A DNA stretch of 5,153 nt from Escherichia coli (GTDB lineage: Bacteria; Pseudomonadota; Gammaproteobacteria; Enterobacterales; Enterobacteriaceae), in assembly GCF_013315695.1 (NCBI RefSeq), contig NZ_CP054358.1. One strand, given 5' to 3'. The translations under genes and the position numbers were made by a program. Positions 1 to 5,153 of the stretch are shown here, in pieces (position 1 is the stretch's first letter; every line of letters begins with the position of its first letter). The notes under the pieces were generated by a model, which saw only the letters and a list, made by a program, of their open reading frames with translations, was not told where the DNA came from and made no database searches.

Positions 1-53
1 CATCCAACAAGGAGGTTTATAGCGAATATTCCCACAAAAAATCTTTTCCTCAT
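1..53 (-). CDS. kil: Colicin release (lysis) lipoprotein Kil, 5-prime portion: start codon at 53..51, 17 codons plus 2 nt before the window edge; continues at 5153..5069
   Basis: Reverse complement of 1..53 translates to MRKRFFVGIFAINLLVG followed by TG, which with the complement of base 5153 completes a Cys codon, giving a lipobox L-V-G-C. This N-terminus matches the ColE1 Kil protein as I remember it. A Shine-Dalgarno AAGGA (complement of 61..65) sits 7 nt upstream of the ATG. The gene lies downstream of cea and imm on the cea strand, as in pore-forming colicin operons. Confidence 0.85.
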   Translation of the reverse strand, partial: MRKRFFVGIFAINLLVG

Positions 54-100
54 AACTCGATCCTTATAAAATGAAAAGAATATATAACGAGGTTTAATTT

Positions 101-442
101 ATGAGTTTAAGATACTACATAAAAAATATTTTGTTTGGCCTATACTGCGCACTTATATATATATACCTTATAACAAAAAACAACGAAGGGTATTATTTCC
201 TAGCGTCAGATAAGATGCTATACGCAATAGTGATAAGCACTATTCTATGCCCATATTCAAAATATGCTATTGAACACATATTTTTTAAGTTCATAAAGAA
301 AGATTTTTTCAGAAAAAGAAAAAACCTAAATAATGCCCCCGTGGCAAAATTAAACCTATTTATGCTATACAATCTACTTTGTTTGGTCCTAGCAATCCCA
401 TTTGGATTGCTAGGACTGTTTATATCAATAAAGAATAATTAA
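101..442 (+). CDS. imm: Colicin E1-type immunity protein (inner-membrane protein, 113 aa)
   Basis: The 113-aa product [34 protein letters not shown]... is very hydrophobic with about three predicted transmembrane segments, and matches the ColE1 immunity protein as remembered. It is antisense to and convergent with cea; the stop codons overlap (cea ends at 439, imm at 442). GAGG at 90..93 lies 7 nt before the ATG. The gene is markedly AT-rich compared with its neighbours. Confidence 0.93.
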
Positions 443-2004
443 ATACCCAACACCTCATTTATAGTATTAAGTTTATTCTTATCAATAAAGGCACATAGAA
501 TGCCTGTAACAATAGCAATCCCCCAGATACCTAATGTAGTTCCAGCAAGCACACTAAAAAGTAAAACAACAACATAACTAACTCCAGCATCTACAGCTTT
601 CTTCTCTAATGTAAGAAATAGCGGCTTCCAGTCACCTGTATCCTTAATTTTTAGGATATCAGATACCACATCATATCCAAAAGAAACATGTCCCGTAATC
701 TTCAAGTACTTGGCAAACTGATCTAAATGCTTAGCCCAGTCTTCATACTTAACCGCCTCCAGTGCATTGAAAATTGCATCACGGTCTGCTTTGCTGAATT
801 TCTTATTTAATACATCCTTGTATTTCTCAAAAGCAGCTAGAGCTTCATTCACATTGCTGATTTTCTTACCTTTAGATTTATCAGCAAGTTCCTGTGCCAT
901 TTTTGAATATTTTTCACCATATTTTTCAGATAGCGTTTGATAAAAGCTAACTGTTGCATCCACAGCATCCTTAATCTGCGAGTTCAGGAGATTAGTCTGT
1001 GCTGTTTTCAAATTATCTTCAGCATCATGAATACGTGAAACTGCTGTACTTCGCTTATTATTAGCCTGAGAAATAGCCTCTTGGATTCCATTTATCTCAG
1101 AGCTAATCTGGTTAAGACGCGTTTCTGATGCTGTTACCTGCTTTTGTTTTTCCTCCATCTCATCACCAGCTCTCGCCCGTAGTCTGGTGGCCTCAAAAAA
1201 AGGACGACTCTGAAGCGGATCATTCGCCCTAGGAGATAAAAGTTTAACCCTTTCATCCAGTTCTTTATATTTAGCAGATGCCTGATCCAACTCATTTCGT
1301 TTTCCGGACAGCGTATTCGTTTCTGCATCACGGGCATGAATACTGGAGCTTAAACGGGTATTGAGCGTATTAATCTCTTCATCCACTTTCGCCAGCTCAG
1401 ATTGTGCAGCAGCAAGATTTTTTTGTGCCACCTCCACAGCCCGGGCCTCTTCACTCAATGCTGCCAGGCGTTTCTCTTCATCCTCAGCCAGTTTCAATTG
1501 GCGTTCTGTTTCAGCCTGCTCCTTCTCTATCTCTTTACGTCGTTGTTCTGCTTCCTGAAAAGCCTTTTCCGCAGCTTCCGCTTCTTTACGGGCTTTTTCT
1601 TCTGCTTTTGCAAGGCGCAACCGCTCTGCTTCTGCCTGCATCGCTGCATTATTGGCATGAGCCAGGTCAATAACCTCCGGATGAGTGGAATTATGGCGAA
1701 GCGCCTCATTCACAATATCCTTCAGATGTTGAGTCAGCGCATCCCGGTTTGCTTTCGCTTTAGCCTGTGCTTCTGCGGCAGCTTTTGCTCGGGCAGCCTG
1801 TTCTGCCTGCGTTTTCTTCAATTGAGCAGTAGACCATTTAGCTGTGGCATGAATGGCTGCAGAACTTTCACTTTTGCTACCTCCAGTTCCACCACCACCG
1901 CCAGAGCCACTCCCGTCTGGATTACCATTCAAAAGAGTAATGATTACCTGCCCCTTATCATCATAAGGAACACCATCTTTATAGTACGCTACAGCTGTTT
2001 CCAT
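439..2004 (-). CDS. cea: Pore-forming colicin, colicin E1 type (521 aa): glycine-rich N-terminal translocation region, central coiled-coil receptor-binding region, C-terminal channel-forming domain
   Basis: Product begins [27 protein letters not shown]...[18 protein letters not shown] and ends ...[47 protein letters not shown] (hydrophobic hairpin of the channel domain). It is collinear with colicin E1 (522 aa) from memory, with scattered substitutions. AGAGGA precedes the ATG. The promoter with LexA boxes is immediately upstream. Confidence 0.96.
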
Positions 2005-2051
2005 TATAAAATCCTCTTTGACATTAAAAACAAATAGTTAAAAGCAATATA

Positions 2052-2082
2052 CTGTATATATAATCACTGGTTTTATATACAG
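2052..2082 (-). promoter_or_regulatory. Twin overlapping LexA (SOS) boxes of the colicin operon
   Basis: Read on the - strand: CTGTATATAAAACCAG (complement of 2067..2082) and GTGATTATATATACAG (complement of 2052..2067). Both are close to the CTGT-N8-ACAG consensus. They lie between the -10 hexamer and the cea start, as in ColE1. Confidence 0.8.
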
Positions 2083-2086
2083 TTTA

Positions 2087-2115
2087 AAATTACGCCGCTG
2101 CATTTTCCCTGTCAA
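2087..2115 (-). promoter_or_regulatory. sigma70 promoter of the cea-kil operon (-35 TTGACA at 2115..2110, 17-bp spacer, -10 TAATTT at 2092..2087)
   Basis: Reverse complement of 2086..2116 reads TTGACAGGGAAAATGCAGCGGCGTAATTTT. This is a perfect -35 with a 17-bp spacer, and the predicted start site falls inside the LexA boxes. Confidence 0.75.
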
Positions 2116-2263
2116 CCCTGTGGATTTTCATTTTTGTGAAAACGATCAAAAAAACAGCCACCCACACCACGTGCTATTTCCACCCGATGCCACAAAAACC
2201 AGCACAAACATTACCGTTCTCAGACCTCATTATGTTTTACTGAAACCATGAGATGAGACACCT

Positions 2264-4227: not shown

Positions 4228-4868
4228 CGCTCAGGACAGGATACCGAACGGCACAACAGAGCGTAAGGAGAAAATGTCACATAAGGCGCTCTTCCGCTTC
4301 CTCGCTCACTGACTCGCTACGCTCGGACGTTCGACTGCGGCGAGCGGTGTCAGCTCACTCAAAAGCGGTAATACGGTTATCCACAGAATCAGGGGATAAA
4401 GCCGGAAAGAACATGTGAGCAAAAAGCAAAGCACCGGAAGAAGCCAGCGACGCAGGCGTTTTTCCATAGGCTCCGCCCCCCTGACGAGCATCACAAAAAT
4501 CGACGCTCAAGCCAGAGGTGGCGAAACCCGACAGGACTATAAAGATACCAGGCGTTTCCCCCTGGAAGCTCCCTCGTGCGCTCTCCTGTTCCGACCCTGC
4601 CGCTTACCGGATACCTGTCCGCCTTTCTCCCTTCGGGAAGCGTGGCGCTTTCTCATAGCTCACGCTGTTGGTATCTCGGCTCGGTGTAGGTCGTTCGCTC
4701 CAAGCTGGGCTGTGTGCACGAACCCCCCGTTCAGCCCGACCGCTGCGCCTTATCCGGTAACTATCGTCTTGAGTCCAACCCGGTAAGACACGACTTAGCG
4801 CCACTGGCAGCAGCCGTTGGTAACTTGGTTAGCAGAGCGATGATGGCGCAAATGGTGCAACAGAGTTC

Positions 4869-4898
4869 TTGAAGTAGTGGCCCGACTACGGCTACACT
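4869..4898 (+). promoter_or_regulatory. RNA I promoter (-35 TTGAAG, 18-bp spacer, -10 TACACT)
   Basis: Hexamers positioned as in pMB1; the RNA I start at about 4905 lies 7 nt downstream of the -10. Confidence 0.6.
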
Positions 4899-4904
4899 GG
4901 AAGG

Positions 4905-5012
4905 ACAGTATTTGGTATCTGCGCTCTGCTGAAGCCAGTTACCTCGGTTAAGCAGTTCCCCAACTGACTTAACCTTCGATCAAACCGCCTCCCCAGGCGG
5001 TTTTTTCGTTTA
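4905..5012 (+). ncRNA. RNA I (antisense copy-number control RNA, about 108 nt)
   Basis: Starts ACAGTATTTGGTATCTGCGCTCTGCTGAAGCCAGTTACC, identical to the 5-prime end and stem-loop 1 of pMB1 RNA I. Ends in a stem (CCGCC 4985..4989 / GGCGG 4996..5000) followed by TTTTTT. -35 TTGAAG (4869..4874) and -10 TACACT (4893..4898) are upstream. Confidence 0.85.
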
Positions 5013-5020
5013 CAGGCAGC

Positions 5021-5049
5021 AGATTACGCGCAGAAAAAAAGGATCTCAA
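5021..5049 (-). promoter_or_regulatory. RNA II promoter (-35 TTGAGA at 5049..5044, 17-bp spacer, -10 TAATCT at 5026..5021)
   Basis: The complement of GGATCTCAAG...AGATTACGCG gives TTGAGA and TAATCT, the same elements as the pBR322 RNA II promoter. Confidence 0.7.
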
Positions 5050-5060
5050 GAAGATCCTTT
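5034..5060 (-). terminator. Hairpin plus short U-run just downstream of the kil stop; candidate terminator of the cea-kil transcript, overlapping the RNA II -35 region
   Basis: Arms AAAGGATCT (5038..5046) and AGATCCTTT (5052..5060) with a 5-nt loop. On the - strand the hairpin is followed by TTTT (complement of 5034..5037). The kil stop is at 5071..5069. Confidence 0.4.
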
Positions 5061-5068
5061 GATCTTTT

Positions 5069-5153
5069 CTACTGAACAGAGATCCCCGTCAATTTAGAAG
5101 AAGATGATGGAGCCACAGTCCCTCCCTGAACATCACGTATATAGTTAGCCTGA
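5069..5153 (-). CDS. kil: Colicin release (lysis) lipoprotein Kil, 3-prime portion (residues about 18-45 plus stop at 5071..5069); joins 1..53 if the molecule is circular
   Basis: Reverse complement of 5153..5069, in the frame set by bases 2..1, reads (C)[27 protein letters not shown] then TAG. This is a near-exact continuation of the ColE1-type lysis protein, giving a 45-aa lipoprotein overall. Neither the ORF track nor a linear gene finder can see it because it is split by the window boundary. Confidence 0.8.
   Translation of the reverse strand, partial: [27 protein letters not shown]

Follow-up and report, generated by a model that had tools for sequence, protein, structure and literature searches.

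The operon for colicin E1 is reported to be the only one among colicin operons that occurs in two families of plasmids (PMC6807383). In Shigella sonnei it resides on the small plasmid spB, whose backbone carries mobA, exc1, exc2, cea, cei, cel, ori, rop and cer; colicin E1 is produced upon mitomycin induction and is reported to be released from an spB-carrying strain after exposure to mitomycin C, killing is BtuB-dependent, and this plasmid type accounts for the killing of Escherichia coli competitors by S. sonnei (PMC10924462). The present work concerns a stretch of E. coli DNA of 5,153 nucleotides (contig NZ_CP054358.1 of RefSeq assembly GCF_013315695.1), which at its full length is referred to as the window, and in which the colicin lysis gene kil is divided between the two ends. 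We conclude, with a confidence close to certainty, that the window is a complete monomer of a small, high-copy, circular colicin E1 plasmid of the ColE1 type, which belongs to the group of pHUSEC41-4, pSS046_spB and pColE1-H22 and whose record starts at an arbitrary point inside kil. The plasmid is thus a familiar colicin E1 producer that is already known, and the detection of its split gene, although sound, will not surprise specialists.

Among the described plasmids, pHUSEC41-4 (NC_018996.1, from E. coli) and pSS046_spB (NC_009346.1, from S. sonnei Ss046) are both circular, 5,153 bp in length and of the same gene order as the window, from which, once the latter is rotated, they differ by three and six substitutions, respectively, with no insertion or deletion in either case. 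Both encode an identical Kil protein and, their records being opened at a boundary of the cea gene, kil is internal and annotated in each of them. The architecture is also that of pColE1-H22 (NC_013589.1; 5,159 bp), which is 6 bp longer, 99.8% identical over its full length and endowed with MobA, Rop and Kil proteins of the same accessions as those of the window. ColE1 itself (NC_001371.1; 6,646 bp) shares with the window the cea-imm-kil genes, exc1, exc2, the cer core, the RNAI/RNAII origin and rom, whereas it differs in the accessory sequences of cer and possesses its own relaxase operon mbeA-D, including MbeC, together with a ColE1-type origin of transfer (oriT), where the window, which lacks a relaxase, carries a NikA homologue and an oriT of IncI type. 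Plasmid pCRP3 of Citrobacter rodentium (NC_003114.1; 3,172 bp) has MobA accession WP_000166966.1 in common with the window, but its RNAI region is different, and on the XerD side of cer it carries two unrelated open reading frames (ORFs) in place of the colicin and exc module. According to the published description, the small ColE1-like plasmids bearing nikA (the pCERC7, NTP16 and pU302S group) likewise combine the lack of a relaxase with an oriT containing a 20-nt inverted repeat.

The sequence-only reading of the window had placed the start of a lysis gene at position 53 of the minus strand, cut by the left edge after 17 codons and two nucleotides, and had proposed that the final 85 nt of the window, read on the same strand, continue its frame and complete the cysteine codon of the lipobox. 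Both statements were borne out on the sequence: positions 53 to 1 of the minus strand read ATG AGG ... GGA TG, and the T provided by position 5153 generates TGT, so that the codon split by the window ends is precisely that of the lipobox cysteine. The joined product is 45 amino acids in length, comprising the signal peptide MRKRFFVGIFAINLLVG followed by C18, and its residues 15-18 form the lipobox LVGC; the start codon is preceded by a Shine-Dalgarno-like AAGGA motif, read from the sequence at about 67..63. Comparison with known lysis proteins, which had been suggested as a check, revealed that residues 1-45 span the entire Pfam Lysis_col model (PF02402; model positions 1-49 of 49; E 2.3e-32), that 42 of the 45 residues (93%) are identical to those of ColE1 Kil, and that the protein is identical to WP_001329514.1, annotated as 'colicin release lysis protein' on pSS046_spB. 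A full-length family match of this strength arising from a chance in-frame junction of unrelated ends is not credible. By analogy with ColE1, the signal peptide and LVGC motif point to a 45-residue lipoprotein which would cause colicin release. When the window proteins were scanned with NCBIfam no match was obtained for Kil, Imm or Rom, yet all three were matched by Pfam; the silence of NCBIfam is a gap in that library and not evidence of absence.

The junction itself was examined by means of a 600-nt probe consisting of the last 300 and the first 300 bases of the window. This probe was recovered at 100% identity, as a single piece, from the interior of many independently deposited plasmid records, several of which have a length of exactly 5,153 bp. 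Among the 30 best records in PLSDB, no fewer than 19 share this exact length and match the whole window at 99.7-99.9% identity, a dozen matching records of 5,153 bp occur among complete E. coli genomes, and relatives of other lengths in PLSDB measure 5,159, 5,014, 4,913, 4,760 and 4,698 bp. This variation in length among relatives (5,159 to 4,698 bp) was all that could be found in favour of the window being an incomplete or wrongly trimmed linear contig, with bases lost or repeated where the ends meet and a kil frame that closes by coincidence. Such a history has practically no probability in view of the perfect identity across the 600-nt junction in many independent records, the alignment of the whole circle to two circular records of 5,153 bp with zero insertions or deletions, and the identity of the joined Kil to an annotated RefSeq protein. 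Extra DNA between positions 5153 and 1, which would have spoken against adjacency of the two ends, is present in none of the independent closed records, and at the junction no base has been lost or repeated. The claim that the window is an entire circular plasmid opened inside kil is hence upheld by ends that are contiguous in independent records and by rotated alignments free of insertions and deletions.

It may also be envisaged that the window is a unit cut from a tandem multimer, from a long-read concatemer or from a copy integrated in a larger replicon, for which precedents can be found in a 10,847-bp record described as 'linear' that is an error-ridden dimer of the plasmid (NZ_CP082070.1), in a record of 15,434 bp that the window matches at three places, and in a copy flanked by insertion sequences (IS) within a 68-kb IncF plasmid (CP091396.1). 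We regard this origin as very unlikely: the window is exactly one unit of 5,153 bp and lacks a terminal overlap (its two ends do not overlap exactly over 8 nt or more), it is free of the frameshifts that are found in the concatemer record, and the known integrated copy is opened at about position 4608-4613 and not in kil. Besides, the sequence of a unit derived from a multimer would be no different, leaving gene content and the kil join unchanged.

The account of the plasmid given here, both as a complete circular monomer and in its workings, is nonetheless subject to three considerations which weigh against it. The circularity of this particular window is deduced from its identity to circular records and not from reads or an assembly graph; the regulation, lysis, Xer resolution and mobilisation attributed to the plasmid are carried over from what is known of ColE1 and R64 and from the literature cited; and full copies also occur integrated in the 68-kb IncF plasmid and as concatemer records. 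The objection from integrated copies is weakened by the fact that the copy in CP091396.1 is opened near the equivalent of window positions 4608-4613, outside kil.

As regards these unusual records, the CP091396.1 copy (positions 4001-9159) is a full plasmid copy accompanied by a short duplication, CGGATA, at its opening point; it is flanked on the right by the end of an IS3-family-like element, with IS26 about 0.7 kb beyond, and on the left by a transposase fragment. An IS-mediated cointegrate as the origin of the window was considered and rejected, since the break in the integrated copy falls in the origin region, outside kil. NZ_CP082070.1 constitutes an approximate dimer in which copies of rop, nikA, kil and imm are truncated or frameshifted, and is most likely a long-read concatemer artefact; the 15,434-bp record may be similar.

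When the arbitrary start of a circular record falls within a gene of 45 codons, linear gene callers cannot see that gene. As had been foreseen in the sequence-only reading, kil is absent from the mechanically produced ORF list of the linear window, while rotation of the window followed by renewed ORF calling yields kil as the sole ORF of at least 25 amino acids that spans the join. Rotating small circular contigs prior to gene calling avoids the loss of such split genes. The same artefact affects the reference record of ColE1 (NC_001371.1), where it strikes the main gene of the plasmid: this record is opened inside cea (5140..6646 plus 1..62), and cea is missing from both its PLSDB feature table and its ORF list. 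In several other public records kil is unannotated even though it is internal, for example at about 3870-4010 of NZ_CP065609.1, and in such cases it was therefore missed for reasons beyond linearisation.

The features identified in the window are compiled in the following table.

Features of the 5,153-bp plasmid, with positions numbered from the first base of the window
Feature	Position	Strand	Evidence or remarks
kil (cel/lys), 5' part	1..53	-	ATG at 53..51, 17 codons MRKRFFVGIFAINLLVG plus TG; signal peptide and first two bases of the Cys codon
imm (cei), colicin E1 immunity protein, 113 aa	101..442	+	Pfam PF03526, E 5.1e-35
Hairpin with 15-bp stem, just past the cea stop and inside imm	384..418	-	Terminator-like site reported on the + strand
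cea, colicin E1-type pore-forming colicin, 521 aa	439..2004	-	Pfam Colicin PF01024, residues 343-517, E 1.1e-33
Two LexA (SOS) boxes overlapping by 1 base, upstream of cea	2052..2082	-	Pattern search and direct reading
exc1, 'entry exclusion protein 1', 145 aa	2264..2701	+	Annotation in related records
exc2, Exc2-family lipoprotein, 139 aa	2782..3201	+	NCBIfam NF033828, 176 bits against a cutoff of 35
cer core (XerC arm, 8-nt spacer, XerD arm)	3206..3235	-	GGTGCGTACAA-TTAAGGGA-TTATGGTAAAT; alignment
cer accessory region, pCRP3 type	3236..3425	-	Near-identical to pCRP3, diverged from ColE1
mobA (nikA homologue), ribbon-helix-helix relaxosome accessory protein	3426..3773	-	NCBIfam MobA NF041264, 112.7 bits against a cutoff of 80
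IncI-type oriT	3780..3860	+	20-nt inverted repeat 3801-3820 / 3823-3842, then CATCCTG|T at 3844-3851
rom/rop, 64 aa	4033..4227	+	Pfam Rop PF01815, E 5e-31
RNAII primer region and origin	4455..5013	-	Predicted RNAII start near 5013; RNA-to-DNA transition near 4455-4465
RNAI, antisense copy-number/incompatibility RNA	4907..5009	+	Rfam RF00106, 87.4 bits against a gathering threshold of 47, model 1-102 of 102
Hairpin and T-run, 8 nt past the kil stop	5038..5060	-	Overlaps the predicted RNAII promoter -35 (TTGAGA)
kil, 3' part (85 nt)	5069..5153	-	Third base of the Cys codon, 27 codons, TAG stop at 5071..5069

The sequence-only reading had further asserted that a full replicon complement is present, and all of the parts it listed were recovered: the origin with RNAI, rom, cer, the colicin operon and a mob gene, of which only the label of the last, a mob remnant, needs correcting. 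The mobA gene is intact and of NikA type and is accompanied by an IncI-like oriT but by no relaxase, an arrangement that is usual for small plasmids of the pCRP3 type. Its product is 115 amino acids long when translated from the first ATG (the RefSeq call, from position 3749, being 107 amino acids) and shows 52.9% identity to an annotated IncI NikA over residues 12-113, and no detectable similarity to MbeC of ColE1. The oriT stretch upstream of mobA aligns well to the DNA that precedes nikA-nikB on an IncI plasmid, with conservation of both the inverted repeat and the GGACAGGATGTG block; the nick within CATCCTG|T is predicted from the R64/RP4-type consensus. The NCBIfam scan returned no relaxase family match, and no unassigned sense ORF is left that could encode one, the remaining long ORFs (211, 123 and 116 amino acids) being antisense to cea or rom, or located inside the origin.

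The description of mobA as a remnant implied that a ColE1-like mbeABCD operon had been deleted in place, a reading which draws on the presence of mbeA, mbeB and mbeD between rom and cer in ColE1 and in 6,888-bp relatives, and on the shorter length of the relaxase-less 5,153-bp plasmid. This scenario is extremely improbable, considering that MobA is not similar to ColE1 MbeC, that the segment 3247-4255 finds no match in the 6,888-bp plasmid by megablast or blastn while being 99.8% identical to pCRP3, that pCRP3 likewise has mobA alone beside cer, and that the block from mobA to rom occurs on more than 300 small plasmids. In-place deletion of a ColE1 mbe operon was accordingly rejected: mobA came with a backbone segment of the pCRP3 type.

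With respect to transfer, the summary of Moran and Hall (2017) that is given in PMC9282650 describes small ColE1-like plasmids that bear the same NikA and a conserved oriT with 20-bp repeats in the absence of nikB, and it attributes to the same authors the mobilisation of one of them, NTP16, by R64. By analogy, the plasmid studied here would likely be transferred by a relaxase acting in trans, requiring both the relaxase and the mating apparatus of a co-resident conjugative plasmid of the I-complex. For the records of this plasmid, PLSDB/MOB-suite lists 'relaxase MOBF' and 'mobilizable' despite there being no relaxase gene. Relaxase-based tools thus mis-describe mobility when confronted with a module composed of NikA and oriT without a relaxase.

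The positions at which the similarity changes from one relative to another indicate that the plasmid is a mosaic. Positions 1..3246 of the window are 99.97% identical to NZ_CP065609.1, a 6,888-bp colicin E1 plasmid that carries mbeA, and positions 4513..5153, which form part of the origin, match the same plasmid with zero mismatches, whereas no match to it was obtained for positions 3247..4255 with either megablast or blastn. The latter segment is the one that is 99.8% identical to pCRP3, the similarity to which extends from 3206 to about 4809, with six isolated mismatches between 4201 and 4809. At the cer end, the first mismatch with the ColE1-type parent is situated at 3236 and the divergence from pCRP3 at 3205, thereby delimiting exactly the 30-bp core; the second parental switch lies within 4513-4809, a stretch that is conserved in both parents. 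Judged from these alignments, the plasmid is a two-crossover hybrid between a ColE1-type, mbeA-carrying parent and a cryptic plasmid of the pCRP3 type. The former contributed RNAI and the 5' part of RNAII along with the colicin operon and the two genes exc1 and exc2; the cer accessory region, nikA and oriT derive from the latter, as do rom and the origin proper.

The simplest reading of such a hybrid involves Xer recombination at cer, which formed or resolved a cointegrate, in combination with a homologous crossover in the origin. We tentatively entertain the possibility, without considering it probable, that the window has kept a natural exchange at base-pair resolution, whereby a NikA backbone without a relaxase acquired the colicin E1-exc module and the ColE1-type RNAI region through two crossovers: one in the 30-bp cer core, where XerCD recombination between heterologous cer sites would place it, and one in a conserved origin stretch of roughly 300 bp, which would fit homologous recombination. 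For the spB, pHUSEC41-4 and pColE1-H22 plasmids, precisely this history may so far have gone unstated. The general phenomenon behind it has already been published, and the two-parent mosaic fits both the reported occurrence of the colicin E1 operon in two families of plasmids (PMC6807383) and the statement, in the title of Moran and Hall (2017), that NikA plasmids bear various segments next to their resolution site.

The 30-nt cer core is invariant between the window, ColE1, pCRP3 and the 6,888-bp plasmid. The accessory region adjoining it fits, in length and position, the stretch of approximately 180 bp on the XerC side that involves ArgR and PepA, and contains the motif TGCATAGCTATGCA, which is conserved with ColE1 and lies where ColE1 has its ArgR box; the roles of ArgR and PepA at this region are suggested by ColE1 cer, and on the same analogy the host XerCD recombinases would resolve plasmid multimers at this site. 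A scan of the window with Rfam at E values up to 1 returned RNAI only, together with a chance snoRNA-like match inside cea (E 0.7), and hence detected no Rcd-like family in cer.

On the other side of the core are the two exc genes. For Exc1 a Pfam search gave no domain, and its single weak match, to the NF038291 family of plasmid DNA-binding proteins, is below the cutoff (43.8 bits against 85); the part resembling NF038291 is followed by a C-terminal half that is coiled-coil-like, and no similarity was observed between Exc1 and the helix-turn-helix ORF at the equivalent place of pCRP3. The traditional function label of Exc1 looks poorly supported. Exc2 is represented in related records by WP_001254967.1, an accession that is also found on ColE1.

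Within the colicin operon, which is read on the minus strand, the LexA boxes (2052-2082) are followed by cea (2004..439) and finally by kil (53..5069), with imm on the plus strand between the two genes. Cea is 87% identical to its ColE1 counterpart over 502 amino acids, and Imm is 93% identical to that of ColE1. The first LexA box, CTGGTTTTATATACAG (2067-2082), was found by pattern search as a perfect CTG-N10-CAG, while the second, CTGTATATATAATCAC (2052-2067), was recognized by direct reading and has one mismatch. Considering that the bare CTG-N10-CAG pattern occurs twice in the window against 1.25 occurrences expected, and is thus not above chance, the boxes are meaningful only by virtue of their position and tandem arrangement upstream of cea. 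Control by LexA is established for ColE1, and by analogy DNA damage would relieve LexA from the two overlapping boxes and turn on cea and kil, with the immunity protein encoded between them on the opposite strand guarding the producer cell. The strong hairpin past the cea stop is a candidate partial terminator between cea and kil, its assignment to the minus strand being one that we presume from the known layout of the ColE1 operon. A generic promoter scan of the window identified five sites against 6.8 expected from shuffled sequence and was not relied upon.

As to replication, Rom is 63% identical to that of ColE1, and the NCBIfam scan revealed no Rep-family match among the ORFs of the window. 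The RNAII start and transition positions are presumed from the RNAI coordinates and the known ColE1/pMB1 layout, and replication would, as in ColE1, proceed from the RNAII primer and be held in check by Rom and by RNAI, an antisense RNA of three stem-loops. An ORF of 52 amino acids in the RNAII region (4714-4872, plus strand) is listed by RefSeq as 'hypothetical protein' WP_001329547.1, its ColE1 equivalent being labelled 'replication initiation protein'; considering that replication of the ColE1 type requires no plasmid protein, this ORF is probably a spurious call. The origin also adjoins the end of the colicin operon, where the kil stop is separated by only 8 nt from the hairpin and T-run (the 5038-5071 region of the minus strand), which overlaps what we take, from the known pMB1/ColE1 sequence, to be the -35 element of the RNAII promoter. 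Since this hairpin overlaps a predicted promoter on the same strand, read-through from the SOS-induced operon would enter the promoter of the replication primer.

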